Source of the DNA: a virus
IMG/VR virus record: IMGVR_UViG_3300005573_001166
Span: 32,001 to 96,000 of that record
Reading direction: 5' to 3' (one strand)
Length of the DNA stretch: 64,000 nucleotides
A model generated the notes under the pieces. The model was given only the letters and a program-made list of their open reading frames with translations, made no database searches and was not told the DNA's origin. The position numbers and the translations under genes were made by a program. This document shows, piece after piece, positions 13,259 through 48,738 of this stretch (position 1 is its first letter; each line of letters starts with the position of its first letter).

Positions 13259-16200
13259 ATGGCAGAGTCTTTGATTAAGGGAAATGTTCCTGATTGGTTT
13301 CAAGTAGAAGGTGACCTAGATGAGTCTACTACTCCTATTATTGTAAGGGAAGAGGAGAACGGTACTTGGTCTGTTGTCAGGGCACATCTAGGTAAGGATT
13401 TGGAAGTAGATGCTGGGTATCCTACAAAGGAGGCTGCATACCATGCTGCTTTGTTAGGAGATGAAGGAAGCGGTATTGTAATAGAGTCCCGCCGTCGGTC
13501 TTTAGTTAAACATGCAGATATAAGACCGGGTATGGTTGTAGAGTATGCAGAGGAGCCTGTTACTGTTATAGCTGTAGATGGCGATACTGTAGAGGTAATT
13601 ACTCAAGAGGGCAAGCGCTTCTTTGTAGATCGCAGCCAAATAGATGCTAAAGAATTACCTGCTTCCGAGACTACAGAAACATCTTGTGGGCTAGAGGAAG
13701 TCAAGGAAACATCTTGTGGTCCAAAAGAGTCAGAAGAGGAGAAAAGCGAAGAGGAAATGAAGGAAGGTCCTCCAGTTACTATTGTTACGATGCCCTCTTA
13801 TCCGGGAGAGCGTTTATATCCTACAGGCATTAAAGTGATACTTACTGCTCTTCGCATTCCTTATAAAGAGGCTGCAGGAACCATTTGGGTTAAAGTAGCA
13901 GATAAGTTGGAGTATAATCCACAGAATAGTACTTACAGAGTTTTCGACTCTGAGGGTAATCCTGTTTCCAATGTTATGAATAGAGACGAGGCGGAAAAAT
14001 GGTTGTTGGAGAATTACCCTATAGGCAGAGAAACTGTAAGCTCCTTACTCCATAAAGCAGCTTACCCTCCAGGAACGACTGTAGAACTACCTGCAAAACA
14101 GGAAACAAGTATAAGCCCTTCTACCAAGGTTATGCCTGCTGAAAATGTAGAGTTGTATCCTGAACAGGTTGCTTCTGTATCGCCTGCAGTATCGGCAATA
14201 CTTAAACAGAGGAAAGCATCTATTAACATAGTAAGGTTGGCAGAGGTATTAAAACAGTCTCAAGATGAACTAGTGCAAGATCAAGCTTTAGATGAGATGG
14301 CTGCTAAGTCACCTCCAGTTTGCAAAAAGTGTGGAAAACCCCACTGGCCTTTCCAAAAGTGCCCCACTGAGGAACCAACTACCGAAAAATCCGCTGCAGT
14401 GTATATAGGCAAGGGCAGTTTTGTTTATGTTCCTGCATACGACGAAGAGGCAGAGGTTGTAGGCAAAGAAGGGAACATGCTCCATATAAAAAGGCCTGGA
14501 GGAACTTACGATTACGTTCGTATGCAAGATGTAAAGTCAATAGACAGCCAGGAGCCTGTTAAATGGGCTGGCGGAGTACTTTCTGCCTCTCAAGTAGCAG
14601 CTTACTCTACCGCAGTAGCTGAAAAAATGCAGGAGTTGGGTATAAAGACTATAACTGCTGAAGAGCTTTCCGATATATTAGAAGCTGAAGAGCTTGAAGA
14701 GGAAGAGGCTGAAGACACAAACGAAACAGATGAAGAGACTGAAGACACAAACGAAACAGATGAAGAGGAACTCAAGCAAATAATAGAGGATATGGTTGAG
14801 GATATACAAGCAGAACTTGCTGAAAAAGAGGCTGTTAAGATAGGACAAACCGAGGAAGCACCTATAGACGAGGTAGGGCAATTTGGTACTAATGAAGAGG
14901 AACTTCAATCCTATGTAGATGAGGTAGGACGTAAAGTTGTATTTAAAGGAGATCATTGGGAATATGAGGATACAGGAGAAGAGGCTCCTGCTCCTCCAAG
15001 TAGCCCTCAATCTCCTCTATTCGGAACAGCAGGTAAGGTAACTATGAAATTCGACTGGGCAGAATTTTTCAACGACGTTTTGCCTCAGTTGTCTAACAAA
15101 GAGTTCCAAACCGTTTACGAGCATACCCTAAACAGCCCTCCTGAAGTAACTGCAAGCCAGGAGGAGCATGATTTGTATAAAGAGGAGATTCTTAAATTTA
15201 CTAAAGAGGCCAGCAGAAGAGGACTTCCCGATCCTACTGAGCTAGCTTTTGGTATACAGGACATAGTTCGCTCTAAAGTTTCGCCCATTGTAGAGGGAGT
15301 AGTAACAGAGTATAAAAAGGAAGGACGTAAGGTTAAATACTTAGTAGCTAGTGGACGAAACGAGCTTTGGTTTGAAGAGAAAGAGCTTTCTCCTGTATTA
15401 GCAGCACAAGGACCTCCCCCTCCTGGAGCTAGAGGAGTAGATGTTTGTGTGTGTCCCGTTTGTGGAAAGGAATATCCGCATCAAAGAGGAGTTCCTTGTA
15501 GCTTACAAGTTTGTACAGAACACCCAAATACTAGGCTAATGGGTAAACCATCTCAACCCCCTGAACCTCCTAAAAGTCCACAGCCTCCTAAAGGACCTCA
15601 ACCTCCTAGAGGCCTCCGGCCTGGAGGTCCAGGACCGGTTCCTAAAGCTGCATCAGCTGACGTAATATACGAACGTACTTCTGAGGTAGCAGGTCCAGAG
15701 AATAAGGAACAACAAAAGGAATTTAACAAAGAGTTGGAACAGAAGACGGGTTCGAGTACGGAAGACGAAAGCGAGCAGCAGGGGAGGAAGCAGCCTTCTG
15801 CTTCCTCCCTGCAAGTAGAAGCAGACATAATCAAGGAATGTACTATTCGTAAATGTAAGCCGGGAGATAAAAAAAGCTCTAAAGACGTTTGGTGTTTATA
15901 TACAAAACATAAGCCGGAAAGGTTGCTAGGGAGGCATTCCACTTATGAGGAAGCATTAGCGCAAGAAAGGGCGATAAAGGCGCAGGGTATGAAGATTGCA
16001 GAGACTGTGAATACAGAGGAAGTTATATCACCTGCTTCTCCTAAAACTCCCATATCTCCTACAGTACCTAAAGTTCCAAGGACTCCTATACCAGTTCCTG
16101 TTCCTAGAGAGGCTCCGAAAAAGTTTGTATGTCCTATAGATGGAAGGGAGTATACCGAAGCACAGGTAGGGGAAGATAGAGAATGCCCTGATCATCCAGA

Positions 16201-17482
16201 TGTAAAAGTTATAGAGAGAAAAGTAGTTGCTCCTAAACCTACTAAATCTCCCAAACAAACTGCAGCATCTTGGGAGGCAGTCTGTTTTGTAGATAAGGCG
16301 TTTAAGGACATACAAGAGGGTTGCCAACTCTCTGAAGTGTTGGCTAGTCTGCATAAATCCTCCTATACTGAAGAGGATATAGCCTTTATAAAGAGTGCTT
16401 TGTTGGAGAGGACAGCTAATGATTATTTAGAGGGAACTGTTCCTGAAGATATAAGGGAGCAAGTAACTGCTGTATATTTGAGGGAGAGCCCTGCAGATGC
16501 TTTAGTATATCTTAAACAGATGATCCCTGAATATCAAGGGGATTACAAGGAGTTATTGCAACAGATTGTAAATGAAGTTGGGTATAAACCTGAACTGATA
16601 ACTGAACAAGTCCCTTCTGAGGCAACTGCAGAGACTTATAAAGAGTCGGAATTTCTTAAAACATCTGATCATACAAAAGAAATAGCTTTATGTTTTAAGG
16701 GTGATAGATACCACATATATGATTTAGATTTCGGTGACATTACTCCGGAGGGTGCAAAAGAAAAAGATATAAGGGAAAAGTTAAAGTCGTTGGGTGTTTC
16801 AGAAGATAAAATAGACGAAGCTTTGAAGCAGGTTAGGGAGTTGCAGGTAACTCTACGAGTAAAAGTGGCAGAAACAGAACCCGGAGTGTATATAAGAGAT
16901 ATAGATATTGCAGTTTCGACGGCTTTAACGGAACTTGGGCCTCAAGCACCTAGGGCGTCTTTGATGATGAGGGCAATGGAAAAGTTTGCAGAACTTAACT
17001 CGGAGGAGTTAGCAAGGGCATATCAATCCGAGATAAAGGAGCGACTTAATAAAGAGTTAGAGTTGTATGAGGGAGCTAGAGCAGAAATTCCTGGTACTCA
17101 TAAGGAAATAGGTACCCAGCAGGGTATGAATCCTATAGCTGCAAAACAAGCAAAAACACCGGATCCGAAAAAGAAGAAGGAATTAGTGGACAAGTTTAAA
17201 GAACAAGGAGTGCCTTTAGAACAGGAAGTCAAAAAGAAGCCTAAACCGTGGGAAGTATCTGAAGACAGGCAACTTACTACAGTTGGTTTTAAGTTATACG
17301 ATAGGGTACGTGATCAGGCTAATCCCAACTTGACGGGAACTGTTATAGGTTTTGAGGGTGATAACGTAGTTGTGGCTATGGACAAGTCTATTTACTGCGA
17401 GGCAGGAGCCGAGGGTTTATATCTACCAGACGCCCTTTTGAAGATAGAAGAGACTGATGCTGAGGATCTTAACTTGTGGTAG
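13259..17482 (+). CDS. 1407-aa mosaic virion-associated protein (SH3/KOW-like barrels, Zn ribbons, acidic and Pro-rich linkers)
   Basis: IRPGMVVEY, IGKGSFVYV, FGIQDIVRS and FKLYDRVRD barrel-like starts; CKKCGKPH, CVCPVCGKEYPH, CPIDG..CPDHP; lies between terminase and portal. Confidence 0.7.
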   Translation: MAESLIKGNVPDWFQVEGDLDESTTPIIVREEENGTWSVVRAHLGKDLEVDAGYPTKEAAYHAALLGDEGSGIVIESRRRSLVKHADIRPGMVVEYAEEPVTVIAVDGDTVEVITQEGKRFFVDRSQIDAKELPASETTETSCGLEEVKETSCGPKESEEEKSEEEMKEGPPVTIVTMPSYPGERLYPTGIKVILTALRIPYKEAAGTIWVKVADKLEYNPQNSTYRVFDSEGNPVSNVMNRDEAEKWLLENYPIGRETVSSLLHKAAYPPGTTVELPAKQETSISPSTKVMPAENVELYPEQVASVSPAVSAILKQRKASINIVRLAEVLKQSQDELVQDQALDEMAAKSPPVCKKCGKPHWPFQKCPTEEPTTEKSAAVYIGKGSFVYVPAYDEEAEVVGKEGNMLHIKRPGGTYDYVRMQDVKSIDSQEPVKWAGGVLSASQVAAYSTAVAEKMQELGIKTITAEELSDILEAEELEEEEAEDTNETDEETEDTNETDEEELKQIIEDMVEDIQAELAEKEAVKIGQTEEAPIDEVGQFGTNEEELQSYVDEVGRKVVFKGDHWEYEDTGEEAPAPPSSPQSPLFGTAGKVTMKFDWAEFFNDVLPQLSNKEFQTVYEHTLNSPPEVTASQEEHDLYKEEILKFTKEASRRGLPDPTELAFGIQDIVRSKVSPIVEGVVTEYKKEGRKVKYLVASGRNELWFEEKELSPVLAAQGPPPPGARGVDVCVCPVCGKEYPHQRGVPCSLQVCTEHPNTRLMGKPSQPPEPPKSPQPPKGPQPPRGLRPGGPGPVPKAASADVIYERTSEVAGPENKEQQKEFNKELEQKTGSSTEDESEQQGRKQPSASSLQVEADIIKECTIRKCKPGDKKSSKDVWCLYTKHKPERLLGRHSTYEEALAQERAIKAQGMKIAETVNTEEVISPASPKTPISPTVPKVPRTPIPVPVPREAPKKFVCPIDGREYTEAQVGEDRECPDHPDVKVIERKVVAPKPTKSPKQTAASWEAVCFVDKAFKDIQEGCQLSEVLASLHKSSYTEEDIAFIKSALLERTANDYLEGTVPEDIREQVTAVYLRESPADALVYLKQMIPEYQGDYKELLQQIVNEVGYKPELITEQVPSEATAETYKESEFLKTSDHTKEIALCFKGDRYHIYDLDFGDITPEGAKEKDIREKLKSLGVSEDKIDEALKQVRELQVTLRVKVAETEPGVYIRDIDIAVSTALTELGPQAPRASLMMRAMEKFAELNSEELARAYQSEIKERLNKELELYEGARAEIPGTHKEIGTQQGMNPIAAKQAKTPDPKKKKELVDKFKEQGVPLEQEVKKKPKPWEVSEDRQLTTVGFKLYDRVRDQANPNLTGTVIGFEGDNVVVAMDKSIYCEAGAEGLYLPDALLKIEETDAEDLNLW
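14709..14767 (+). repeat. 30-bp tandem duplication (EDTNETDEE)
   Basis: ctgaagacacaaacgaaacagatgaagag x2. Confidence 0.9.
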
Positions 17483-17494
17483 GAGGGACATACC

Positions 17495-17803
17495 ATGTAC
17501 AAATATGCAGAGAAGGAGTTCGGTTTTACAGACGTAGCTCCCGATACAGGAGTTCCTCTTAATTTATTTGAGGAGCATACTTTTCCTAAATACAGTACAG
17601 ATGAAACCAGAGAGCAGTCGCTTTTAGAGCTAATTCCCCATTTAGTAGATGTTGTAAAGTCTGCAGTAGATGATTACGGTGTATTACCTCAGGATGCTTT
17701 CGATTCTATAATAAACGAGTACGAGTTAGACCAGTTTCCTGAAGTTATACACTACTTTTGGAGGCAACTGCCTAAGGAGCTTCAGATTGATATCTCTTAC
17801 TAA
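17495..17803 (+). CDS. hypothetical protein
   Basis: 102-aa ORF with GGAGG SD. Confidence 0.65.
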   Translation: MYKYAEKEFGFTDVAPDTGVPLNLFEEHTFPKYSTDETREQSLLELIPHLVDVVKSAVDDYGVLPQDAFDSIINEYELDQFPEVIHYFWRQLPKELQIDISY

Positions 17804-18599
17804 ACTACCTGATTTGTCCAATCCACCTTTGTGTGCTTGCGGTTGTGGAAAGAAGGTAAAGTGGGACTATCATAGAAGAAGATGGTCCAGATTTGTACTA
17901 GGGCACGGATCGAAAAGAGTGCCTTTTAACTTCTTACATGGGAAACCTCCAAAATGTGCTTGTGGCTGCGGCAAACCTGTAAAATGGGATGATAGCAGAG
18001 CTCAATGGTCTAAATATTTAAAAGGACACAGACCTAAAATCCCTTCCAGAAGAAGGGTATACCCCAAACCGAAAAACGCCCCTCCAAAATGCGTCTGTGG
18101 TTGTGGTAGAAGAGTACCTTGGAACTATTATACAGGTCGGTGGCGCAGATTTGCAACAACGAATTGCTTTATTAAGGTACTTGTACAAAGCAGGTTTAAT
18201 CTCTCTATTCTCTTAGGTAGACTTTCTGGAGAGCCCCCAAAATGTGCTTGCGGTTGCGGTAGGAGGGTAAGGTGGAACTTTCTTGAGAACAGGTGGAATA
18301 CATATGCTCGGAATCATGGGCCCATACCTGTAGATGCAGGAGAGGCTCCTTTATGTGCTTGCGGTTGTGGACAGCCTGCAAGATGGAACCATGGGGAGAA
18401 AAGATGGAATAAATACTTGCAAGGGCATTTTTCTGTAGAGAGGGCTTTAAAGCTTTTGACAAAAGCAAAAACTGCAAGGTCTTTTAATCTCTTTTTCCAT
18501 TTATTTAGAACTGTTGCAAACAAAGCGGGTATTCCTATTACACATCAAAATGAGTTGTTAAGAAGTATAGGTGTTATCCCTATAGATATGTTAAGATAA
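17787..18599 (+). CDS. basic protein with five CxCGCG...W...H putative Zn-binding repeats
   Basis: PP(L/K)C(A/V)CGCG..V.W...RW..(F/Y)..GH x5; TTG start after AAGGAG. Confidence 0.75.
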   Translation: MISLTKLPDLSNPPLCACGCGKKVKWDYHRRRWSRFVLGHGSKRVPFNFLHGKPPKCACGCGKPVKWDDSRAQWSKYLKGHRPKIPSRRRVYPKPKNAPPKCVCGCGRRVPWNYYTGRWRRFATTNCFIKVLVQSRFNLSILLGRLSGEPPKCACGCGRRVRWNFLENRWNTYARNHGPIPVDAGEAPLCACGCGQPARWNHGEKRWNKYLQGHFSVERALKLLTKAKTARSFNLFFHLFRTVANKAGIPITHQNELLRSIGVIPIDMLR

Positions 18600-18618
18600 A
18601 AAAGGCGGTGAGTATCTT

Positions 18619-20619
18619 TTGAGTGATACAATTATAGTTAGGAACTTAGAGGAAGAGTTCAGAAAGAGTAGGCGGTTTCATCAAATAAAAACTGCTGCCT
18701 CTCAAGAAGGGTCTGGGGGGGTAAACTATTCTTATCTTGCTCCAGGTTTGTTTAGGGAGCCCCCTACAGTAGACGCTCCTTATTCTAGACGGGTAGGTGT
18801 AGTATCTGGTATAGGTAGTAGATCTGTAGAGTCAGACAATCTTACAAATGTAGAAAAACGGGCTATTATGAAGAGTGCTAGTCATATACTGTATACAGAT
18901 CCTGAAATGTATGGGCCCCTCTTTGATCCTATTAACTGGTATCTGCCTTATACATATAAAGTATTGAATAGATGGATTAGGTATTGGGATAGGTTTGATC
19001 CTTGGATAGGCAATGCCATTGATATGCACAGTGAAATCCCCTTATCGCGGTTTACGTTAACCGGGGTAGAGGATGAGGCTATTCAGAGGGAATATGAGGA
19101 TATAGTAGATCAATTAGAGTTATATCAAAGATTATTAGAGATTACAAGAGAGTATTGGCTTTTAGGGGAGGCATTTCCTTTTGCTCATTGGAATGAGGGA
19201 TGGTTAGCTTATGATCAGTTGTCTTTACTTAATCCTGATTATGTACATGTACGCTCTTCCCCGTTAGTGCATGGGAATATGATACAGTTTGAATTAGAAC
19301 CTGACGACGCCACCCTTTCACTTGTTAAGAGTAGCGATCCTGCCGACTTAGAGGTAAGGGAGCTATTAGATCCTGTTGTAATACAAGCAGTAGAAACAGG
19401 AACAAATATACCTCTATCTAGTTTCAACGTTTCCCATATAGCTCGTAAAGCGTCTCCTTATGATTTGAGAGGTACAAGTATTGTATTAAGATGTTTGAAA
19501 GATATGCTTTATATGGATAAGGTAAGAGAGGCGCAGATGGCAATCGCAGATAGACTTATCGTTCCTTTGCAGATATTTAAGTTGGGAGACCCGAAGGGAG
19601 AGTGGTTGCCGTCTCAAGCTCAGCTGGATGAGTTTGCAGAACTGTTAGCATCAGGAAGAGATGACCCTAATTTTGCTATTGTAAGTCATTATGGGTTACA
19701 GGTAGAATATGTAGGTGCTACAGGCAAAATTATACCTACAACACCCGAATTTGATTTTGTCCGCGATAGAATTTTAGCTGCTCTGTTTACCAACAGAGCT
19801 ATGATGGACGGTTCCGGACCTACATATGCAAATGCATCTGTTGCTTTTGAAGTACTGCAGCTGAGGTATATGTCGCTTAGAGGCCTATTAGAGATGTGGG
19901 TCAAACAGAAAATATTTAAACCTATTGCACAAGCGAGAGGTTACTACACCAAATCCTCTAAATCCCGTACTAAGCAGCTAGTAGTTCCGGACATTAAGTG
20001 GCTGGAGAAGATAAGATTGTTAGATGATGTGCAAATGAAGAGATTCCTACTACAGCTTCGTATGAGAATGGAAGTGCCTTTAAGTACCATATGTGACATT
20101 TTTGACCTTGACTATGAAACTCTTAAAAAAGACTTAGCTAACGAGCTTGGAACTGTAGCAGACCCTGTTTGGAGGCAAGCTATGAGCAAGGAAATAGCAT
20201 TAAGTGCTTCCGCTCCAACTCCTCAACCCTCCTTCGCTATGCCCGGTATTGCTCCAGGTATGGGTATGCCTTTTGGGGAGATGTTTCCCGGTGCTACAGG
20301 GCCTAGTGCCAGAGAGGTTGCCCCTGAGGGAGGTGTTTCTCCTGGAGGTCCAGAGCTTCCAGGTTTACAGCCCGAGATGATAGGGCCTGGTGCAGGAGTG
20401 GAGGCTAGTAAAAAACCTTCTAATTCGGAGGAATTAGCTAATCTTATAGCATATAGGGAGGCTTTAGAGAGAAAACATGTAGAAGCTGTAAAGAAGATAG
20501 AAGAAGAGGTCAAGTCAAATGGGAAAATGTACCGTAGGGTGTTTGGTGTAGCTAGAAACGATAATAAACACGGAGTCAAAAGAATGGGGGATTCTTTTTA
20601 TGTAGTAGATAGAGGTTAA
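18619..20619 (+). CDS. portal protein
   Basis: typical size and position; EYWLLGEAF, LLNPDYV, HIARKASPYDLRGTSIVLR, QLRYMSLR; Pro/Gly-rich C-terminal tail. Confidence 0.85.
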   Translation: MSDTIIVRNLEEEFRKSRRFHQIKTAASQEGSGGVNYSYLAPGLFREPPTVDAPYSRRVGVVSGIGSRSVESDNLTNVEKRAIMKSASHILYTDPEMYGPLFDPINWYLPYTYKVLNRWIRYWDRFDPWIGNAIDMHSEIPLSRFTLTGVEDEAIQREYEDIVDQLELYQRLLEITREYWLLGEAFPFAHWNEGWLAYDQLSLLNPDYVHVRSSPLVHGNMIQFELEPDDATLSLVKSSDPADLEVRELLDPVVIQAVETGTNIPLSSFNVSHIARKASPYDLRGTSIVLRCLKDMLYMDKVREAQMAIADRLIVPLQIFKLGDPKGEWLPSQAQLDEFAELLASGRDDPNFAIVSHYGLQVEYVGATGKIIPTTPEFDFVRDRILAALFTNRAMMDGSGPTYANASVAFEVLQLRYMSLRGLLEMWVKQKIFKPIAQARGYYTKSSKSRTKQLVVPDIKWLEKIRLLDDVQMKRFLLQLRMRMEVPLSTICDIFDLDYETLKKDLANELGTVADPVWRQAMSKEIALSASAPTPQPSFAMPGIAPGMGMPFGEMFPGATGPSAREVAPEGGVSPGGPELPGLQPEMIGPGAGVEASKKPSNSEELANLIAYREALERKHVEAVKKIEEEVKSNGKMYRRVFGVARNDNKHGVKRMGDSFYVVDRG

Positions 20620-20696
20620 AGCAGTACCTTCTACTTTTTGCCCAATCTTAAAAATACTTCAAATGTACTTTTTTAAGCAGCTGGATCAGCACACCT

Positions 20697-20903
20697 TTGT
20701 GGTTTTTAAAAATGAAGAGAGCAGAATTTTTCGAGCGCTTAAAGTCTTGGAAGAGAGCTGATGTTATACATCTTGTAATAGCTTTATTGTTTAACCCTAA
20801 CGTGGATAAAGGTAAAATAATTTCTTTTATAGAGAGTACGTTTCAGGATTACGAAATCAATAAAGCATTAAAGGATATAGGGAGAGAGGAAAGACTTGTA
20901 TAA
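20697..20903 (+). CDS. hypothetical small protein
   Basis: short ORF in the operon direction. Confidence 0.45.
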   Translation: MWFLKMKRAEFFERLKSWKRADVIHLVIALLFNPNVDKGKIISFIESTFQDYEINKALKDIGREERLV

Positions 20904-20916
20904 GGAGGTAGGAAGG

Positions 20917-21027
20917 ATGAAAAAGAAAAAGATAAAAAAGGTAGTAGTTGGAAAAATCAAATCTTCTTTCGAGGTAAAACCCAAGCCTAAAGAAGAGGCT
21001 AATCCTAAACCGGATAAGGAGGAATGA
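20917..21027 (+). CDS. 36-aa lysine-rich micro-protein (not in ORF track)
   Basis: AAGGAGG SD then MKKKKIKKVVVGKIKSSFEVKPKPKEEANPKPDKEE*. Confidence 0.6.
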   Translation: MKKKKIKKVVVGKIKSSFEVKPKPKEEANPKPDKEE

Positions 21028-21030
21028 CAA

Positions 21031-26421: not shown

Positions 26422-26437
26422 AAAAGCCGGAAAGGAC

Positions 26438-31669: not shown

Positions 31670-31770
31670 AACCCCCTTATTCCCCTTTTTACCCAATTGT
31701 TTGACTTTGGAATATGTAATTACATACCAGAGCCCATGAAAGTGGTTTATAGGGGGTTTTAGGCTGTTTT
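31667..31770 (+). promoter_or_regulatory. dispersed intergenic element (related copies at ~3425-3521 and ~60848-60902)
   Basis: GTAATTACATACC-N9-GAAAG-N3-TTTATAGGGGGTTTTAGGCYGTTTT; TAAAACCCCC/GGGGGTTTTA inverted repeat. Confidence 0.6.
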
Positions 31771-31785
31771 TCAAAGGAGGTTTTA

Positions 31786-31863
31786 ATGGCTGTAGCTAAA
31801 AAGAAGTCTAATCCGAAAAAAAGGAAACGCAAAATTCTTAAGCGTATGCAGAGAGGTTATTAG
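31786..31863 (+). CDS. 25-aa basic micro-protein (not in ORF track)
   Basis: AAAGGAGG SD then MAVAKKKSNPKKRKRKILKRMQRGY*. Confidence 0.55.
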   Translation: MAVAKKKSNPKKRKRKILKRMQRGY

Positions 31864-31867
31864 TATT

Positions 31868-37459: not shown

Positions 37460-38128
37460 GTGTTTATCTTGCCGGAAGATATGTCTATAAAGCAGTTCCA
37501 GTCTTTCTGGACTAGAACACCTAGCAAAATAAAGAAGGTATTGCTGGACAATATAACAGAGATCTCCTATACAGATGATCAGGATTCTAGACTTCAGGGT
37601 AAAAGGGCAATTTTGGAAGGAACTAACCTTTTTTTAGTAAAGGGTTGCGACTTAGAAGAGATATGGCATGAAGCGGCCCATTTACTTTTAGATGCACTAC
37701 CTCAAAAGCAGGAGATATTGGACTCTTACAAAAAGGATGAGGAAGCTTTAGCCGATGAGCTTTACTTTTTGCTATACAAGGGCATCCCTTCTGATTTCTG
37801 GATTAAATACTTAACCGCTTCAATAAAGACTGCAAGTGTATCATCTATAGATATAATAGATGCTGCTTTAGATACATTAGCAACCTTAGTTTTATCCAGT
37901 GACGACGAGTCATATATCTGGGCATTAGAGATTGCTAAAGAGGCCGTAAAGGACTTACGGAAGGAGGATATGCTTTCTTATGAAAGTAGGGAAGCACCTA
38001 GACAATATTATTATCGTGAAGATTTAGCTTTATCTCCTCTTAAAACACATCAAAACAATCCTTTAGAAGTTAGTAGGGTAGATGTTACTCCTCGAGGCAA
38101 TAGTGCAGACGGTCTAGGTTTAGTATAA
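37460..38128 (+). CDS. zincin-like (HExxH) protein
   Basis: IWHEAAHLL...EEALAD followed by IKTAS. Confidence 0.6.
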   Translation: MFILPEDMSIKQFQSFWTRTPSKIKKVLLDNITEISYTDDQDSRLQGKRAILEGTNLFLVKGCDLEEIWHEAAHLLLDALPQKQEILDSYKKDEEALADELYFLLYKGIPSDFWIKYLTASIKTASVSSIDIIDAALDTLATLVLSSDDESYIWALEIAKEAVKDLRKEDMLSYESREAPRQYYYREDLALSPLKTHQNNPLEVSRVDVTPRGNSADGLGLV

Positions 38129-41100: not shown

Positions 41101-42715
41101 CAAGCTTCCTAAAGAATATCTAGAAAAGCCTACAAAAGTACATGGTCCAGGTAAGAGCGGTCCTAAGAAGACAGCTGCAGCAGATGAGCACTTTTATGAT
41201 ATCTCTACTAGCTCTGAACCAAAAGCTCCTAGCTCTGAGTTGGCTGCTGAAGAGAATAAAAAGCAGGATGCGGACTTTAAGAATGAGCTAAAACAGGCTA
41301 CCGGTGTTAGGATAGGCCAACCTATCAAAGTAGTAGTAGGTACAGGTGAAGAGCATCTCGGGAATGTAGCCGAAGTATATACGGATGAAAATGTTATAGT
41401 AGTTGATTATGACGATATACGTAATAGAGACGCTATAAACTTAACAGCAGGTAAATCTAAAGTTTACGGAGAGGCACATGTATTTACTAGACCTGAAATA
41501 GTTACCGTAAAGAAGGGTAATTGGATAGCCTATGGCGATGGAAAGTCTTGGAACTTGTATAACTTCAAGAGATCGGCTTCTAAGTTAGCAGAAGTTAAGT
41601 TAGCAGATGTGGATATTGAAGAGGTAGCAAATACTTTCAATTTAAAGGATAAGTCTCAAGTACCCGCTTTCTTTGCAGGCAAAGAGTATGGAGAAGCAGT
41701 ATTAGACAAGACAATAGAAGCGGAGGCTCAAGGAGCGTTTAATACTGAAGCAGGAACTGGTTTGAGTGTAGATTCTACAGAATCGGATATAAATGTAGGA
41801 GATGAGGTAGTTATTGCTCCAGATTGGCTGCCCACAGGCGAGGAAACAGAAGAGTTAGTAAATGATGTAGTCAATCTAAAGAACGAAAACGTTCCAGGGA
41901 TAGTAGAGCAGATTACTGCAGAGGGTTCATATGTAGTTGACTTTGGTGGAGAGGTGCCTATTGTACTTACTGCAGCTGAGATCAGAAAGGCAAAAGATGA
42001 TAGTTTAACATATGGAACTGATGTAAGGTGGTCGGAAGAAACTAAGGAACTTGCAGATGAAGCAAATAGTGAACAAGAGAAAGAATACCAAAAGGAACAA
42101 GTGTTATCTTCCTTCGGACCTGATTCCAGGCACCATACTGTTATGGCAGCAGTTAATGTTTCGGAAGCAATTCAGTTTATGAAAAAACTAGTAGAAGATG
42201 CTGGACTGAAAATTAAGGATGCTTTGACAGCTGCTGCAGAAGCGTTTGAGATGACAGAAGAAGAGGTAAATAAGTTGGTAAACAGTGATGAGTATATAAA
42301 GGAGTTTGAGACGCCCAAGCCGGAAGAATCCGAAAAACAAGAGCCTGAAAAACAAGAATCAGAGAAACTAGAACAGTTGAAAGCTAAAATGGCAGGGCTG
42401 AAAAAGAGACTTTGCATCCGAATTGCGGAAGATATGGCAGATAAAGGACTAATAGAAGGACTGGACATAAATGCCGATCCTACTACTAGGGAACAAGCTA
42501 TTGAGCGTCAAGTATCTCTTCTAATGAGACTAGATCAAGATGGTTTGTATGAGTTTGAGAAAGCAGTCAAATCTGCTTCAGATCCTAGTGGAGTAGAAGC
42601 GATGAAACAGATAAAGGTAGGTCCTGAGGAAGGAACTTTAAAGCAAGCACTTGCAATGAGAGGCGTACCAGGAATACGTAAAGACGGACTAGACGATCCT
42701 AACTTCTTTATGTAA
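38141..42715 (+). CDS. prohead protease fused to a long multi-module scaffold/cargo region (1524 aa)
   Basis: NDNGDSF, YRDHNN (His), AIGIILDA, VSMGC (Ser), CSICGN..CEH, FFEVSLI..ADPEA; C-terminal scaffold-like helices. Confidence 0.8.
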   Translation: MGRIIRYGTSVSIVETYEKISDVKLGPKTLERVAAVTPVAQYSDKYLYVVARAVSGYEKWGPNDNGDSFEWEELLKAYPTFIRGGVYRDHNNQDRKQAIGIILDAWPDMEGQYIDVLMAINKKKAPREVAWIKEGTLDSVSMGCVVDEAICSICGNVARDESEYCEHVRNGMKGRIIGGKLCHEFNRGVRFFEVSLISPYSEAADPEAKIKQTLASKDTDEFEEWIVETSFSDVKESDLLDSFSYQIGDQVYTQDGSKGVIVGTEGMYPKVAIGKSRVQLFDPKTLTIVKGVNEMASDVIKQAQGTEKEEFGRDHPNKANPTTGRWGGDYGSPAEKYEQDFNRTEVESESVDLRGSQVSSQIERPDYLHKGKTSGEVEGPMPKKASVDELEKQLEEHLKSTAEKVLELEQVKKGEAVKKSFMSRLRQALGIEREAAEDYGRDAPARGNPSTMRDAGDYQESEKYYAAQKEEGDTKAVETKKDIDAQRPYTYSNTLENIYTKLPKVAMSVKEITDKLKEIFGDEQKAATFAKTLSELNDKEVEDVLKMIAELEAEEKEETEGKPAPLGMPSGSKVAAIYHIRLALAHKKLAALGDWGNEDPVAHAKRMILQQITRDPTTNIQSMFMLASSIRNLNEEQKAKLSKELGLAKEAALDYKNMTKEELIGALKYAKAMGDLKAENSILNALLSKKEDAPVRKTAASWDEIIPYIVEQMKKGRSYQDIKAEIDEKFDITPGSKKGPEPKKAPSKEPAMGPGGSFMPEPGNASELTKSPSEGGYLSSGSPSQTGLWGGETPGAMNEREIGRSSSVKTAGRSLKEWVAELEKKGAPAKVIRQFQHIWNSAIEDGKSEEYAARAAIDKLPKEYLEEPTEAHGPGKSGSKKTAAELLNDYDITKGTGARWNATTKELADESNQEQKKDFIAELKEARKKELLARQLEVTAGRSLKEWVAELKKKGAPAKVIRQFQHIWNSAIEDGKSEAYAARAAIDKLPKEYLEKPTKVHGPGKSGPKKTAAADEHFYDISTSSEPKAPSSELAAEENKKQDADFKNELKQATGVRIGQPIKVVVGTGEEHLGNVAEVYTDENVIVVDYDDIRNRDAINLTAGKSKVYGEAHVFTRPEIVTVKKGNWIAYGDGKSWNLYNFKRSASKLAEVKLADVDIEEVANTFNLKDKSQVPAFFAGKEYGEAVLDKTIEAEAQGAFNTEAGTGLSVDSTESDINVGDEVVIAPDWLPTGEETEELVNDVVNLKNENVPGIVEQITAEGSYVVDFGGEVPIVLTAAEIRKAKDDSLTYGTDVRWSEETKELADEANSEQEKEYQKEQVLSSFGPDSRHHTVMAAVNVSEAIQFMKKLVEDAGLKIKDALTAAAEAFEMTEEEVNKLVNSDEYIKEFETPKPEESEKQEPEKQESEKLEQLKAKMAGLKKRLCIRIAEDMADKGLIEGLDINADPTTREQAIERQVSLLMRLDQDGLYEFEKAVKSASDPSGVEAMKQIKVGPEEGTLKQALAMRGVPGIRKDGLDDPNFFM
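40574..41180 (+). repeat. 220-bp duplicated module (40574-40793 and 40961-41180), ChaB-like
   Basis: GRSLKEWVAEL.KKGAPAKVIRQFQHIWNSAIEDGKSE.YAARAAIDKLPKEYLE.PT..HGPGKSG.KKTAA x2. Confidence 0.9.
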
Positions 42716-42733
42716 TATGGAGGTTCCTATAAA

Positions 42734-45700
42734 ATGGAGTTGTCTGAGTTAGCTAGACAATTATCTCAGGATATTATATACAATACCCACATAGAACGAA
42801 CAGGTATCGGGAAGTATGTAGTGTCCGGCGTACCTACTAACTACTTAGAGTACGTACTATCTGAGTTTCCTGAGATCTCTGAAAAGGCTGCTGTAGCAAT
42901 AGCTGCAGCCGTTGAAAGAGATGTAGAAGCTTACATTGATGGTTTTCTGAGAGTAGGCGCCAAACCTATACGGTTTGGGCAATCTGTACAAGATATATAC
43001 AATCTTGCTTTACAGTTAAAAAATACAGCCGCTTCTCCGGATGACCTTTTTGATAAAGTAAGCGATCAAATGGGTACGACTTTAGACCAAACGTACCTAC
43101 CTTTGATAACAGCTGTCTTCAATTGGCAGCCCGGACAGGATGATACGGATATATCTAACGCACTGCAAGCTATTGGAATACCTCCCGGTACTTTTGCTCC
43201 GGCTTCTACAGCTACTGCCCCTGAGCTAGGTACTCCGACTCCTGAATTGGGTACAATACCTGCTATGCCCGGATATACATATGGGCCTGAAGGAGGAGGA
43301 CCTGGAGTACCTAGCGTAACTGCTTTATTGAAAAAGGCACAAGATGATTTTGACGATGAAGATTTTGAAGATTCAGATGAGACTGAGGTACCTACAGAAA
43401 TTCCGGGATACTGGGAAGAGTACCACGAACCTTCACCTGAAATATTTGAAGAAGTTAGAAAGCAGTTTCCTGAAGAGAAAAAGGTAGAGGAAGGGGAAGG
43501 GGAGGACGAGTTACTTGAACTACAAGAACAGTCTCTAGAAGATATAGAGACTACAACACGTCCTCTTTTAGGTTTAGACGATGTAGATATAGTTCTTAGA
43601 GGTATAGAACGTACACTTGCAGGTTCATATAGACACTTAATGTTTGAAGCTGTTGATTACATTAACAAGTTAATGAATGTTACACCTTCAGAAGAATATA
43701 CTAGTAGGTATGTTCAAGCAAGTTCTGTCTTATATACAGCATTACTTTATGGAGATGAAGCACCTGATATCCTCTTAGAATATTTCCCAGCAGCTTTTAC
43801 AAAAGCATCCGATATAATAGATTATGTGCAAAAGCTTGCCCCTTATAAGGAAGGGCTAAAGAAGGGGTTGCTAGATTATATATATAACGAGTTTACCGGT
43901 GAGAATCGACTTTACTACACTCCAGAAGATATTGAGGAAAGACTAAATGAATATAAAAATCGATTAGAGTTGTCTATATATGAGGCCCCTGAAAGTATAG
44001 ACGAGAAGGTAGCAAATTTACGAGAGCGTTTAGAGAGGACAAACGAACGTACTTTAGACTTTGTAGATAAGAAGGTAAATCAGTTTTTAGAGAACCGTAT
44101 AGTTTTACCTTCTAGTAGGGAAGAAGAGTTACTTTCAGCTGCCCCATTACATATACCCGATGTCTCTTTCTCAGAAGACTTGCCTTTATGGCTTACATCC
44201 ATAAAACGACTATTGGGTTATATGCCTCTTAATAGTATAAACGATTTAATACACTTACTAGGAGAGGATGCGTTTGAAAACTTAGAAAAAGAGTTAGAAG
44301 CTCTGCCTAGTAATGTGAAAACAGTAGAACAAACTCCTTTGGGAGAGAAAGAAAAAATCGAGGATTTATACAGAGAAGTAGAGGAAAGAAAACAAGAGTG
44401 GTTAAAAGCTACCGGGACTGCAAAGCAAATAGCAGAAGCTGCTTATGATGCGGCTCGTGAAAAACTACGTACATACCTTATAGGCATATACGAAGACTTT
44501 TACCATAATGTAGTTTTAACCGTAGCAGGTCTTCCAGGTATGCCCGACGTACATCGACATTTTAGGAATTGGGTAAACTATTTTAGGGGGGCAGAGTCTT
44601 TCACTAGTTGGGGACCGGCATTTGATTTACTTTGGCAGTGGGCTTCTTACGGCAAAAAAAGCAACAACAATATAGACATACTTCCTGAAGAGCTGCAAGA
44701 GATAGATTTACAGATACGGAAGCATTTAGCTGAGCACCCTTCAAAACCTTTTGATGTAAGTCTTATTTCTAAATACATCGAAGTGCATATACCTGAGGGA
44801 GAAGAGTACAGAAAGATCAAGATGTATAACCCCCTCTACGTTAAATACGTAATGACTCCTTATAAGGAGGAAGATATAAATGCTCCTTTAGAAGGAACTA
44901 CAAGGTATTATGACGTATGGGGACAGTATATAGAGGGAGTTGTACCTAATGTCTCTCTAAATGTAAAAGAGACCCCTAGTATTATAGAAGTTACCCCCGA
45001 GATGTTAAAAGGGGAACCTACTGAAAGGGCTACTACAGAAGTAGAGCATGTGCCTGCAATAGCCGAATTTCAGGAGGTCAAAGAAGATATTAGGCGGAAG
45101 TTATCAGAAATCAAGAGAGCACTTACATACGAGTATTCCGACCCGACAGCTAGTCCTTACGGCGAGATATCTCCTTTAGAATTTTATAGGAATTCATTAG
45201 AAACTGTAATAGATTTACAGGATGACCTTAATTCAGCTTGGAAGGAATTGGCTGTAGATAACATAGAACAACTTCCGGGATTTGAGTATTTAGCTAAATC
45301 TTTACAAGAGGCTTACGACAAAACATCTACTGAATTACAATCTTTAATTACTGCACTTCAAGGAACTGATGTAGGTGAAGGGGAAGACAGAAGACATATT
45401 CCAGGATTAATTGATAAAGCGCAAGAAGCGCAGCAACCTAGAGAGGAGCAGCCTGGAATCGAAATATCTATAGAGGATCTAGTATCTGTAATAGAAGAAG
45501 GGAGAAAAGTTTATCAGGAGCTTGTACAAAGGGCGGATGATTTAACAGATGATTCTGATGCCAGAGAATTACTCTCTATGATAGAAAGTGAGCTTTCTTC
45601 TTTTACAGGTAAGGCCAATGCCTTAGCCCCCCAATTGTTTGGTATGTTCTCTGATAGAGCTCAGGAGATAAAAGATGCTGTTTCTCAGGCTCGTGTTTTA

Positions 45701-46642
45701 CGAGAGAGTTATCAATTTTTAGAGGATAAGGTAAGAAGTTATATTTCAGAAGGTTCAGATGAGTTAGTTGCAAAACGGTTTGAAGGCGTTTTTTCTGATC
45801 TCTACAACCTAGTAGAGAAGTACAAAGACTATGCAAACGATGTAAACGCCAATCTAGACTCCTTATTGGAAGAGAGGCCCGTGGAGTTATTATCTGAAAT
45901 AGAGTCTCGAATGAAAGAGTTAGGTGCTGCAATGCAGGCAGCAAAAGAGCAAAATGTCGACCCTGTAAAAGTAGAAGACAACAACAGGCTATTAGCAGAC
46001 GCTATTAATACATACTATAGATTAAGGGGTTTAAGAGAGGAAGTTATAAATGCAACAACACCTACATCCCTTTTAGACAGATTTGAAAGTGTAGCAGCTG
46101 GTTTAGAGAGATATGTAGATAGGACACAGGAAGAGATCACTGCAGATCTTAACAGGCAGCAGGTAAGGAATCTGATAAAAGGCATACAAGCTACTACAAA
46201 CTCCTATGCATCTAGCGTAAACTCTTTAATAGAGCAGTTGAAAGATGTTTCTGGTACTGAGAAGGACAAAGTTCTAAGTATATACCACAGAGCTAAGGAA
46301 GCCTACAATCGGTTGAATGGTATACGCAAAGAGCTATCCGAGCGTTTAGTAGGAAGTCCTCTGAGTAATTTAGAGCAAGAGGTGGACAAATTAGATAGCT
46401 TTTTAAACGATATCAAGGAGAAGGCGAGAGAGGCTGAAACCAGAGAGGATAAAGTTTCTTTAATAAAAGAGATAAACGATCGCATGCCTGAATTCGTGAT
46501 TGCCTTAAACAATCTAAAGAATCAATTACTTCCTATACTTAAAGGGGAAGACTTAATATACTGTAAAGATCTTTATGGTGATGCTAGGACGCTTGTTGTA
46601 GCAATCTCTTCAATAGGTAGAGATTTAAAGGGGCAGCTTTAA
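42734..46642 (+). CDS. 1302-aa acidic, helical protein, probably an internal head protein
   Basis: position between protease and capsid genes; long coiled-coil C-terminus. Confidence 0.7.
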   Translation: MELSELARQLSQDIIYNTHIERTGIGKYVVSGVPTNYLEYVLSEFPEISEKAAVAIAAAVERDVEAYIDGFLRVGAKPIRFGQSVQDIYNLALQLKNTAASPDDLFDKVSDQMGTTLDQTYLPLITAVFNWQPGQDDTDISNALQAIGIPPGTFAPASTATAPELGTPTPELGTIPAMPGYTYGPEGGGPGVPSVTALLKKAQDDFDDEDFEDSDETEVPTEIPGYWEEYHEPSPEIFEEVRKQFPEEKKVEEGEGEDELLELQEQSLEDIETTTRPLLGLDDVDIVLRGIERTLAGSYRHLMFEAVDYINKLMNVTPSEEYTSRYVQASSVLYTALLYGDEAPDILLEYFPAAFTKASDIIDYVQKLAPYKEGLKKGLLDYIYNEFTGENRLYYTPEDIEERLNEYKNRLELSIYEAPESIDEKVANLRERLERTNERTLDFVDKKVNQFLENRIVLPSSREEELLSAAPLHIPDVSFSEDLPLWLTSIKRLLGYMPLNSINDLIHLLGEDAFENLEKELEALPSNVKTVEQTPLGEKEKIEDLYREVEERKQEWLKATGTAKQIAEAAYDAAREKLRTYLIGIYEDFYHNVVLTVAGLPGMPDVHRHFRNWVNYFRGAESFTSWGPAFDLLWQWASYGKKSNNNIDILPEELQEIDLQIRKHLAEHPSKPFDVSLISKYIEVHIPEGEEYRKIKMYNPLYVKYVMTPYKEEDINAPLEGTTRYYDVWGQYIEGVVPNVSLNVKETPSIIEVTPEMLKGEPTERATTEVEHVPAIAEFQEVKEDIRRKLSEIKRALTYEYSDPTASPYGEISPLEFYRNSLETVIDLQDDLNSAWKELAVDNIEQLPGFEYLAKSLQEAYDKTSTELQSLITALQGTDVGEGEDRRHIPGLIDKAQEAQQPREEQPGIEISIEDLVSVIEEGRKVYQELVQRADDLTDDSDARELLSMIESELSSFTGKANALAPQLFGMFSDRAQEIKDAVSQARVLRESYQFLEDKVRSYISEGSDELVAKRFEGVFSDLYNLVEKYKDYANDVNANLDSLLEERPVELLSEIESRMKELGAAMQAAKEQNVDPVKVEDNNRLLADAINTYYRLRGLREEVINATTPTSLLDRFESVAAGLERYVDRTQEEITADLNRQQVRNLIKGIQATTNSYASSVNSLIEQLKDVSGTEKDKVLSIYHRAKEAYNRLNGIRKELSERLVGSPLSNLEQEVDKLDSFLNDIKEKAREAETREDKVSLIKEINDRMPEFVIALNNLKNQLLPILKGEDLIYCKDLYGDARTLVVAISSIGRDLKGQL

Positions 46643-46920
46643 TGGACACTAGGGAATGGGTACAGCAATACAAGAAAAATCTAAAATGTGAAGAGTGTGG
46701 AGAATCCGATCCCATATGCCTTGTATTTCATCATCCTATTAGAGATCTTAAAGTTGCTTCTATACACAAATTAGTAGAACGAAAAGCTAGTATAGAAGAA
46801 ATAAAAAAAGAGATAGAAAAATGTATAGTTTTGTGCTTCAATTGTCATTTGAAGCATCATAGAGACCTCAGAGAACAATCTAAACTTAATCAATTCTTTG
46901 AGGAATATGTTTTTGAGTAG
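46642..46920 (+). CDS. HNH endonuclease
   Basis: CEECG...LVFHH...KCIVLCFNCHLKHH. Confidence 0.85.
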   Translation: MDTREWVQQYKKNLKCEECGESDPICLVFHHPIRDLKVASIHKLVERKASIEEIKKEIEKCIVLCFNCHLKHHRDLREQSKLNQFFEEYVFE

Positions 46921-47067
46921 CTTTTTAGTTTTGGCTGTTTTTCATAGAAAAGCTGCTTTTCAATTGAGGTAAAAAACAGCTGCTCTACCGGTCTTAGGGC
47001 GCAAGCTGACTATGTACAAGGGGGGATCGGTTGGAGCTAAAGATAACCTTGTAGGAGGATTTATATA

Positions 47068-47580
47068 ATGGGTGTTCAAGTTAGGTTTTTAGGTGGTTAT
47101 CAGGATGGTACATTAGATGTCAATCCTTTGACTGCTGCTTATGTAGCAGGTCAACCATTAAAAGTCAATACTAGCGGTCAATTGGAGTTGTGTACATGTT
47201 ACAGGCAAGGATACGACGATGGATATGTAGGTCTTGCTAAAGGATATTCAGGTTCTACAACGGATAAGAACTCTGATATTTATAACGGCAAGGCGACATA
47301 TTTTGCAGGATTCAATCAGCTTAAACTGGATAATCAAGGCACAGCAAGAAATGCAAACGATGATTATCCTTTCGACACATCATTAACTTACAATGAGGGC
47401 GATGATATATACATCGACGAGAACGGTAAACTAACCAACAACGGCCCAGGTGCACATCCGGGTTACGCAACAGTGTGTAGCAATGCAACTCCAATAGCAT
47501 ACGTGGTAGAGGTAGGTACTGGGGTGGCAGCTGACGGGACGAGTACTTACAGCTATCTAGTAATAAACCAAGTAAGATAA
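47068..47580 (+). CDS. putative head decoration/cement protein
   Basis: Gly/Asn/Thr-rich beta-type protein directly upstream of the capsid gene; AGGAGG SD. Confidence 0.6.
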   Translation: MGVQVRFLGGYQDGTLDVNPLTAAYVAGQPLKVNTSGQLELCTCYRQGYDDGYVGLAKGYSGSTTDKNSDIYNGKATYFAGFNQLKLDNQGTARNANDDYPFDTSLTYNEGDDIYIDENGKLTNNGPGAHPGYATVCSNATPIAYVVEVGTGVAADGTSTYSYLVINQVR

Positions 47581-47748
47581 TTTTTCACCTTTCTCCTTCT
47601 AACATCACCCCTATTTACTAACCAAAAACTCCCCTGTTAGAAGGAGATTTTAACAACACTGCCGAGGCTTTTTTTAGCAATCATACTTATATTTTATAAA
47701 GTTCTAGCTTTCGGCAGTTAACTAGAACTAAGACAGGAGGTTAATAAA

Positions 47749-48738
47749 ATGGCTACATATGGAGAACAAACACAGGGAGGTCTTTCACAGGCAGCTGTTA
47801 ACCAAATTAGCACTGCTATTGCTAATGCACTTAAATTGTCCCAAAGAAATACACCTGTAAACTCAAGTGAGAAAAGGAGACAGGAGTATTTATCCGGCAT
47901 TCAAAAAGAGGCCACATTAGCGAGGGCGTTAACAACAGAAGCAGGTCTTAGAAAGATAGCTGCTAATATGGCAAACCCAGTTCGTTTCTATCTAGATTAC
48001 AAAGGCATATTCCGCAAATTTGCAGTAGTAGAACAAATTCCAGACGGTGTGCCGATGATCTACGACAGAGACCAACCGGATGTCCCAGCAGTAAAGGTAG
48101 CAGCTGGCGGTGCTGGTGCAATGATTGAAATGGTCGCTCAAAGAATAGAGCTAGAACCTTTCGAAATTGTTGCAAGGCCAAAAGTTCCTTATCGCGAACT
48201 ATTTAACCGCAGATTCAGAGCATTGGATCGTGCGAAAGACAAATTAATTTGGGGTATGGAACTACGTGAAGACCTTATAGGTTTCAGCTTACTAGCTTCT
48301 GCATGGGCAGCAGGTCCAAACGCAGGTGTAAATGTTGCAGGTGCTTTAACAAAAGCAGCATTAGCAGATGCATTTGCTCAAATTGAAAGATGGAGGTTAC
48401 CAGTAGCTGCTGTTCTAATGAGTGCATATGGAACAAGAGATATTCGTTCTTGGGAATGGACAGTATTAGACCAGTTAGCTTTGCAGGAAATCCGCGAAAC
48501 AGGTTACTTGGGTAATTTGTGGGGCGCCGACTTTTACGTCTCAGACCAAGTCTCTTACGGAACAATGTATATAATGACATCTCCTAAGTTCTTGGCCTGG
48601 ATGCCTTTCAGACGTGATACCCAAGTTATTCCAGCAGATGATCCCGACAACCTCTGGTTAGGCTTTGTAGGTTATGAACTCTTAGGAATGACTGTATTTA
48701 ACAGCCGAGGAGTAACCAGGTTAACATTTACCGTATAA
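47749..48738 (+). CDS. major capsid protein (HK97 fold)
   Basis: MANPVRFYLDYKGIFRK, PDGVPMIYDRD, GYLGNLWGADF, GFVGYELLGMTVFN; strong SD; followed by a terminator. Confidence 0.85.
   Translation: MATYGEQTQGGLSQAAVNQISTAIANALKLSQRNTPVNSSEKRRQEYLSGIQKEATLARALTTEAGLRKIAANMANPVRFYLDYKGIFRKFAVVEQIPDGVPMIYDRDQPDVPAVKVAAGGAGAMIEMVAQRIELEPFEIVARPKVPYRELFNRRFRALDRAKDKLIWGMELREDLIGFSLLASAWAAGPNAGVNVAGALTKAALADAFAQIERWRLPVAAVLMSAYGTRDIRSWEWTVLDQLALQEIRETGYLGNLWGADFYVSDQVSYGTMYIMTSPKFLAWMPFRRDTQVIPADDPDNLWLGFVGYELLGMTVFNSRGVTRLTFTV

Follow-up and report, generated by a model that had tools for sequence, protein, structure and literature searches.

The sequence studied here, referred to as the window, comprises bases 32001-96000 (64,000 nucleotides) of a 159-kb IMG/VR virus record (IMGVR_UViG_3300005573_001166), and the head gene module in it encodes proteins that share a short sequence tag. 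The tag consists of a hydrophobic residue, Lys (sometimes Arg, His, or Val), any residue with Thr favored, and Ala, after which Ser, Ala, Gly, or Gln is the usual residue. The tag is found in the linkers that separate folded domains, the head proteins are enriched in its sharper forms, and relatives retain it where modules meet while exchanging, fusing, or splitting the modules. The tag is probably the cut site of the phage's own prohead protease, with Ala at P1 and Lys at P3. An earlier note on this DNA had pointed to a recurring Ala-ending motif at domain boundaries and read it as a polyprotein cleavage code; the observation was partly confirmed and its interpretation partly supported.

The head module contains the giant open reading frames (ORFs, named here by their first window position) 13259 (1407 amino acids, aa), 21031 (1796 aa), 26438 (1743 aa), 33639 (782 aa), 38141 (1524 aa), and 42734 (1302 aa), the last five of which lie between the portal and capsid genes. 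The candidate sites and modules given below, as well as the portal, protease, and capsid genes and ORF 13259, are located on the + strand, which holds nearly all window genes. The nearest cultured relative is Bacillus phage G. L004 and L005 are nearer, uncultured relatives with a gene order identical to that of the window, G002 is a more distant relative in which the protease is a stand-alone protein of 274 aa, and a portal-based scan provided 22 more metagenomic loci.

The candidate protease is encoded by ORF 38141 (38141-42715), a protease-scaffold polyprotein. At its N-terminus is a prohead serine protease and at its C-terminus a conserved tail ending in FF, and it also has two ChaB-like repeats and a scaffold-like remainder. 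It matches phrog_18299 ("head maturation protease", 1e-16) and phrog_2774, and its gene is located between those of the portal (18619) and the capsid protein (47749), an order that is the same in relatives. The earlier assignment of the N-terminal domain (about aa 40-215, 38258-38785) to the prohead-protease/assemblin fold was borne out by an AlphaFold2 model with a predicted local distance difference test score (pLDDT) of 74 and a confident fold over residues 45-215. In structural alignment (VIA-align), T4 gp21 was the best match (Z 10.5 over 129 aa, root mean square deviation 2.8), followed by herpesvirus proteases (Z 7-9), with unrelated MCE-domain rows at about Z 5. Searches of the protease module sequence against the PDB and Pfam gave nothing useful, and the window protein has no Pfam match. 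Among 12 protease family members, one matches Peptidase_S78 (PF04586) at 2.6e-5 and another PF14550 at 0.005. The domain shares 38% identity with phage G gp19. H90 and S141, the serine of a VSMG motif, are invariant in 12 sequences with identity down to 30% and are kept in gp19; they presumably correspond to the catalytic residues of gp21. E193 is likewise invariant in the family alignment.

Two observations concern the architecture of this domain itself. A zinc-ribbon insert (38591-38644) carries C151, C154, C165, and H167 in the pattern Cys-x2-Cys ... Cys-x-His, and these ligands are invariant in the 12 family members and kept in phage G gp19; we know of no comparable insert in gp21 or assemblin. 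In P0006, a relative of ORF 38141, an insert of about 355 aa (residues ~138-494) stands directly after VSMG and before a Cys; its location and length point to an active-site intein.

In the herpesvirus assemblin pUL26 (MEROPS S21), the R and M sites have the form (V/L/I)-x-Ala|Ser. ORF 38141 carries candidate sites in what would be analogous places, A215 like the R site and A1479 like the M site. The first, QTLA215|S (38774-38788), a candidate self-release site, ends the protease domain; residues 216-220, directly after A215, have pLDDT <50, and the pattern T-[LIV]-A|[SA]-K is kept here in all relatives. The alignment with phage G gp19 ends at EKVA|SK, opposite the window's QTLA215|SK. The second, VKSA1479|S (42566-42580), is located 45 aa from the C-terminus, and AVKSA1479|SDP is invariant in five sequences that share 47-62% identity with the window protein. 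Between the two lie the internal candidates IKQA303|Q, PKKA385|S, PKVA506|M, AKEA651|A, RKTA699|A, VKTA811|G, KKTA883|A, EVTA940|G, and KKTA1012|A (39038-41179). The P1 Ala at 303, 385, 506, 651, and 699 is kept in at least three of four to five relatives inside variable stretches, and conservation is weaker at 811, 883, 940, and 1012. When the protease domain was modelled in complex with the last 70 residues of the same protein, the best score was 0.30, the mark being 0.32, which speaks neither for nor against binding. ORF 38141 also contains an internal duplication of about 75 aa (40574-41185), in which a ChaB-like unit, GRSLKEW...KKTA|A, occurs twice; both copies end in KKTA|A, and relatives have one copy.

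The tag also occurs at the portal N-terminus. The portal (18619-20619; phrog_16240) shares 38% identity with phage G gp14, and its IKTA26|A (18685-18699) would allow 26 residues to be removed from its N-terminus. Ten metagenomic relatives extend this far, and several of them have a comparable basic-x-Ala|(A/M) here (LRSA|A, FRSA|M, LRKA|A) in an N-terminal stretch that is otherwise variable among relatives, and phage G has AKQA20|AS opposite the window's IKTA26|AS. The portal N-terminus and the protease domain end are the two candidate sites common to the window and phage G. As for other features of the portal gene and its surroundings, the portal gene of G002 (L014, contig 45552-48287, - strand) contains an in-frame, intein-like insert of about 350 aa, which begins with Cys after a conserved LR, between the residues matching window portal 291 and 293. 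Directly upstream of the window portal, a 270-aa ORF (17787-18599) with five C-A-C-G-C-G zinc-knuckle-like repeats matches DUF6527.

Further module joints are found in the C-terminal part of ORF 26438, where module limits were taken from an exhaustive search with aa 1100-1743, independent of the motif. These limits are query residues 54-223, 225-468, and 465-641, and the candidate P1 residues are at 30, 229, and 469. An AlphaFold model of the same segment (mean pLDDT 85) has low stretches at 22-54 and 466-489 and a dip at 221-230, and the three sites fall in these three low-confidence stretches, while the other three loose-motif matches of the segment lie inside high-confidence domain spans. 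Counting both models, all four structurally tested sites are in low-confidence places between domains. FoldIndex, used as a proxy for disorder, failed to tell sites and non-sites apart.

The first site, IVTA1129|Q (29813-29827), lies in the segment 22-54 with pLDDT <50, ahead of a zincin-like module (aa 1130-1328, 29825-30421) with an HEFRH motif; L005 has TREA|QEY at the site. The HExxH motif is kept in L005, and P0069 is a stand-alone homologue of 165 aa. The domain is modelled with pLDDT >90, its only Pfam match is weak (DUF6782, E 0.32), no PDB sequence matches it, and the fold assignment is putative. The second site, EKSA1328|G (30410-30424), marks the joint to a LigD-type primase-polymerase (PrimPol) module (aa 1329-1568, 30422-31141; Pfam LigD_Prim-Pol), which matches LigD polymerase domains in Foldseek (E 4e-11, target TM-score 0.67-0.69). 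The pLDDT dips to 67 at this joint, L005 has IKVTA|DYP, and the homologue P0060 starts M-GFPEHP, i.e., at P1'. Among PrimPol representatives at most 50% identical to one another, [KR].A is found within six residues of the N-terminal joint in 43 of 90 (10.7 expected, p 5e-17), the highest peak of the whole alignment profile, which also has internal peaks, and at the C-terminal joint in 26 of 89 (10.6 expected, p 1e-5). At the latter, IKTA1568|Q (31130-31144) opens the model segment 466-489 with pLDDT <50 and leads to a rubrerythrin/ferritin-like module (aa 1569-1743, 31142-31666; Pfam Rubrerythrin). Here, L004 has GKTA|S and L005 has IRVA|QE. The ferritin-like module matches ferritin-like 1vjx and a mini-bacterioferritin in Foldseek, and its stand-alone homologues carry KMA|ADTG, KVEA|ADTG, or VLTA|ADT after leaders of differing length.

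In ORF 33639, an N-terminal module named after its FDPNST motif (aa 1-102, 33639-33944) recurs in nine other architectures. An Ala stands four to six residues upstream in all seven embedded copies, and in L016 and the window the gene starts there instead. The module is followed by (K/R)-x-Ala in six of nine copies, the others being P0193, P0194, and L025. In the window this site is IKTA102|K (33933-33947), and relatives have TKEA|Q, VKVA|Q, YKTA|A, IKQA|F, ERIA|F, or KKVA|Y at its position. It precedes a LigD 3'-phosphoesterase module (aa 103-230, 33945-34328; Pfam LigD_N over residues 110-211, E 1e-26), which is separated from a "DFYG" module by IVTA230|A (34317-34331); the corresponding position reads STTA|S in P0190, MKVA17|V in the paralogue 31868, and SKIA|S in L004. 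In P0190, a zinc-ribbon cassette replaces the phosphoesterase between the kept YKTA|A and STTA|S sites. A scan of viral contigs with the phosphoesterase protein found no relatives.

ORF 21031 carries an ATP-dependent DNA ligase module (aa 29-384, 21115-22182; Pfam DNA_ligase_A_M and DNA_ligase_A_C; phrog_114). At its C-terminal end, TRKA384|Y (22171-22185) contains the sole residue, A384, that is kept by all seven aligned sequences in a variable linker, with R, H, or K at P3 in six of the seven. At its N-terminal end, LRKA28|G (21103-21117) is followed directly by the module, and all five homologues have a comparable sequence there (FKQA|Q, KRTA|R in three, GRVA|R); homologue P0185 begins right after this position. 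The earlier note had bounded the ligase by MKTA56|G instead (21187-21201). This candidate was rejected: all six giant homologues have MKT(L/I)|G in a conserved ligase segment, and the stand-alone ligase of L016 aligns across it. Site 28 is the better N-terminal boundary. Of the eight boundaries that had been claimed for the ligase, zincin-like, polymerase, and phosphoesterase modules, the other seven are backed by homology or structure.

The giants differ in architecture among L004, L005, L016, P0035, P0037, P0051, P0066, and P0184-P0194. In the window, the three LigD activities (ligase, PrimPol, and phosphoesterase) are split over three head-module giant ORFs (21031-35987), relatives fuse them differently, and L005 has one 2434-aa ORF with ligase and PrimPol. 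No Ku homologue was found in the 159-kb genome. Tandem proline-rich repeats, probably flexible spacers, occur in ORF 21031, with EQPTP five times at aa 976-1000 (23956-24030), and in ORF 26438, with a PPSTQP-like unit four times at aa 886-925 (29093-29212).

Candidate sites are also present in the remaining head proteins. ORF 13259 (13259-17482), in which K.A (Lys, any residue, Ala) is in excess, has VKHA86|D, EKSA379|A, VKWA437|G, MKIA914|E, KQTA1002|A, VKVA1204|E, and AKQA1298|K. Its homologue in L030 keeps the Ala at 86, 1204, and 1298, and the 379/437 pair flanks an insert found only in the window protein. This homologue is split by three stop codons (L030 6555-6755) into genes of 969 and 735 aa, close to the position of LQVEA855|D in the window protein. 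The 222-aa head protein 37460 contains IKTA125|S (37823-37837), one of four IKTA copies, which is weakly kept in L004 and L005, and ORF 42734 contains KNTA99|AS (43019-43033), one of five TAAS copies, whose A99 is kept in one of two relatives. The major capsid protein is without a convincing cut site.

Around all Ala residues of the head proteins, the outliers are Lys at -2 (82 vs. 54, z 3.8), Thr at -1 (69 vs. 43, z 4.0), and Ser at +1 (z 2.6), with no others. The K(x)nA excess is confined to n=1, and nothing comparable is seen in the window's non-head genes. With tandem repeats and paralogues set aside, the top dispersed 4-mers are TAAS (five different proteins, 0.19 expected) and IKTA (four proteins, 0.165 expected). 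The sharper patterns are enriched in the head proteins 2-4.5 fold relative to the rest of the genome: [ILVMF]K.A (2.38 vs. 1.22, ratio 2.0, p 0.003), K.A[SAGQ] (2.26 vs. 1.15, ratio 2.0, p 0.006), [KRV]TA[SAGQ] (5.9 vs. 1.3, ratio 4.5, p 0.001), and TA[SAGQ] (2.9 vs. 1.3, p 0.0007), with a head/genome ratio of 3.7 for KTA and P values of 0.001-0.01 for the sharper-pattern ratios. By protein, K.A is observed 27 times in 38141 (14.9 expected) and 15 times in 13259 (9.0 expected), and falls below expectation in the LigD giants 21031 (5 vs. 7.0) and 26438 (4 vs. 6.8). T4 and phiKZ-type head proteases cut after Glu, at (L/I)-x-E or (S/A/G)-x-E, and (L/I/V)-x-E and (S/A/G)-x-E are not enriched in the window head proteins (head/rest ratios 0.96 and 1.00).

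Every motif instance in the earlier note is in place, for example IKTA26|A, KSA87|S, and VEA596|S in the portal, KKA202|Q in 42734, and TLA215|S, KQA303|Q, KKA385|S, KEA651|A, three KTA|A, KTA811|G, and VTA940|G in 38141. The definition given there, (K/R/V)-x-A|(A/G/S/Q/D/E), proved too loose: allowing V or R at P3 and D/E at P1' brings in noise, and the loose matches are for the most part accidental, with some falling within folded domains. Val at P3 and D/E at P1' were dropped as defining positions after the residue scan around Ala and the head-versus-rest ratios. What holds up is a sharper core, hydrophobic-(K/R)-x-Ala followed by S/A/G/Q, with Thr preferred at P2 in this phage.

The sharper patterns had been picked post hoc, so replication was sought in other genomes, by scanning 20 residues at 10 positions around Ala in other head modules. 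In phage G gp4-gp27, Lys at -2 of Ala is the single outlier (58 vs. 31.6, z 4.7), compared with 13 vs. 12.2 in the other genes of the locus. It is also the single outlier in the head genes of G002 (z 3.3) and L004 (z 3.6), and in those of L005 it reaches z 2.0, under the outlier threshold. Thr at P2 is peculiar to the virus of this window. No description of a Lys-x-Ala code, with Ala at P1 and Lys at P3, in phage G-like viruses was found in the literature searched.

Several results weigh against reading the tag as a cut site of the prohead protease. The cleavage itself is inferred, and no cleavage product of this virus or its relatives is on record in the literature searched. The fold predicts no Ala specificity, because T4 gp21, the best structural match, cuts after Glu, and the giants carry a zincin-like module of the kind proposed as a processing enzyme in PMC5512222. 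As regards the statistics, the sharper patterns were chosen after inspection of the data. The loose motif gives 75 matches in the head proteins vs. 59.3 +/- 7.2 in shuffles, a weak enrichment of 1.27-fold, and its ratio to the other 122 ORFs of the 159-kb genome is 1.28 (p 0.051). Scans within this genome do not single out the signature: K.A ranks 10 of 1726 residue pairs by composition and 23 of 255 in the head-versus-rest pair scan (head vs. rest, p 0.056), and KTA (10 vs. 3.0 expected) is not singled out among 8000 3-mers. In the rest of the genome, both K.A and TA are themselves 1.22-fold in excess. An indel-boundary test comparing 13259 with L030 scored 7 of 20 vs. 4.85 expected (p 0.2, not significant), and MKTA|G was lost as a site that is not conserved. 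The K-x-A peak at the N-terminal joint of PrimPol may be partly intrinsic to that domain.

As an observation on the genome background, K-x-A and T-A occur at about 1.2-1.5 fold over composition in genes outside the head module in the first 50 kb of genome G000.

If the tag is cut as proposed, the protease would co-assemble into the prohead and then cut after the tag Ala. It would free itself at A215, dismantle its own scaffold-like tail at about ten sites, cut off a putative C-terminal capsid-binding tail at A1479, and shorten the portal by 26 residues. The enzyme modules released would be limited to the ligase (29-384), zincin-like, PrimPol, ferritin-like, FDPNST, and phosphoesterase modules; these would be retained in the capsid and probably pass into the host along with the DNA. 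Judging by the excess counts, we put the number of cuts in the whole module at roughly 20-30, most of them in 38141 and 13259 and only a few in the LigD giants. The earlier proposal that the products of the giant genes are cut into dozens of small proteins was unsupported: 21031, 26438, and the six homologues of the ligase giant are without K-x-A excess, the homologues (13,187 aa) showing no excess of Lys or Arg at -2 of Ala, and none of the 21031 candidates past residue 384 is kept in a full-length homologue of 36% identity. With no such excess and few conserved sites, each of these LigD giants probably undergoes only a handful of cuts.

The tag might instead be left uncut and act as a conserved linker or docking element, such as a hinge, a joint favorable to recombination, or a capsid-interior or scaffold-binding peptide, with the giants packaged whole like the virion RNA polymerase of N4. 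Some polyvalent proteins are packaged unprocessed (PMC5512222). The lack of K-x-A excess in the LigD giants fits such a role, and K-x-A ahead of PrimPol may be part of the domain, several stand-alone homologues keeping (K/R)-x-A near their start. We nevertheless consider an uncut tag unlikely, given that the tag stands exactly at the end of the protease domain and in disordered linkers, that stand-alone homologues begin at P1', that its spacing is specific with small residues preferred at P1', and that the same tag is found at portal N-termini.

A real cleavage signal could also be read by a different protease, either the zincin-like HEFRH module of 26438 or an enzyme of the host, which would act inside the capsid or once ejection has taken place. 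A conserved HExxH module does lie inside the polyprotein, MPTase domains have been argued to process polyvalent proteins (PMC5512222), and the phage G annotation has a zinc peptidase, gp2, beside the terminase. The zincin fold of the 26438 module is, however, putative only, and no homologue of it was found in phage G or G002, which both have the K-x-A signature and the serine protease. The serine protease is favored as the reader because it is present wherever the signature is seen, because no homologue of the window zincin was found in these two genomes, and because the tag marks the protease's own domain end and the C-terminal region of the scaffold, as the R and M sites do in assemblin. A different reader is, on this evidence, quite improbable.

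That there is no signal at all, only a by-product of Lys/Ala/Glu-rich composition, shared ancestry, and selective listing, would account for the 1.27-fold loose motif, the unbiased scans that do not single out K.A here, the 1.22-fold genome-wide bias, the failed boundary, and the non-significant indel test, but it is very unlikely in view of the enrichment at n=1 only, its replication in phage G, G002, L004, and more weakly L005, the Ala kept in seven of seven sequences in the variable ligase linker, the PrimPol joint, and the four of four structurally tested sites in low-confidence linkers.

Processing by a prohead protease is itself well known, and the system resembles assemblin or gp21 maturation joined with polyvalent cargo proteins. 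It shares with assemblin the protease fold, the fusion of protease to scaffold, and Ala|Ser sites at the protease end and near the scaffold C-terminus. In contrast to assemblin, with Val or Leu at P3, the window proteins have Lys or Arg at P3, many more sites, and the tag also on enzyme cargo and the portal; moreover, a zinc ribbon is inserted in the protease, the host is prokaryotic, and cleavage is inferred. In T4 (gp21), phiKZ (gp175), and SPN3US (gp245), a single head protease cuts at a short motif and thereby processes the scaffold, its own chain, and packaged cargo such as internal and ejection proteins (PMC10052503). The fold is the same in the window, and so would be the logic of trimming by one protease, but the tag ends in Ala and the Glu motifs of the T4/phiKZ type are not enriched.

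Polyvalent proteins were described by Iyer et al. (2017; PMC5512222), who proposed an embedded MPTase as their processor without defining a cut-site motif and in whose work PrimPol modules of polyvalent proteins come only from conjugative elements. The giants of the window are similar in being late-gene proteins that string together unrelated enzyme modules, in carrying a zincin-like module, and in their heavy shuffling among relatives, and differ in that the candidates for processing are a defined tag and a head serine protease. Phage G (Donellivirus gee) shares the K-x-A signature and the portal and protease sites over gp14 (portal) to gp27 (capsid protein). Unlike the window, this region of phage G has many small head genes, no giant fused ORFs, and no LigD modules.

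If the protease does cut at the tag, sequence data could be used to predict the mature head proteins and cargo of phage G-like viruses, which are mostly known from metagenomes alone. Phage G is cultured and allows a direct test; no N-terminal data for it were found in the literature searched. A cut at the tag would also mean that an HK97/assemblin-fold protease in a bacterial or archaeal virus prefers Ala at P1, as herpesvirus assemblin does, in place of the Glu preferred by the T4 and phiKZ enzymes, and would suggest that the LigD-type modules (ligase, polymerase, and phosphoesterase) are packaged, and then delivered, each as an enzyme of its own. A broader and more doubtful possibility, which we put forward tentatively, is that hydrophobic-(K/R)-x-Ala is a general capsid-cargo grammar in a large, mostly uncultured phage assemblage beyond the relatives of phage G, in which modules such as PrimPol, ligase, phosphoesterase, ferritin-like, and FDPNST travel as tag-bounded cassettes, irrespective of the giant ORF that contains them, and are freed by the head protease. 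Were this so, virion cargo would be readable from sequence, and here a complete Ku-less LigD end-joining kit would be delivered with the DNA.

With regard to the surroundings of the module, a terminase-like gene (9471) is located upstream, and the major capsid protein gene (47749-48738; phrog_2522), whose product is 85-90% identical in L004 and L005, closes the head module. The next genes after it form an extensive glycosyltransferase and sugar-nucleotide gene block (49587-64000), which is kept in L004 and L005.

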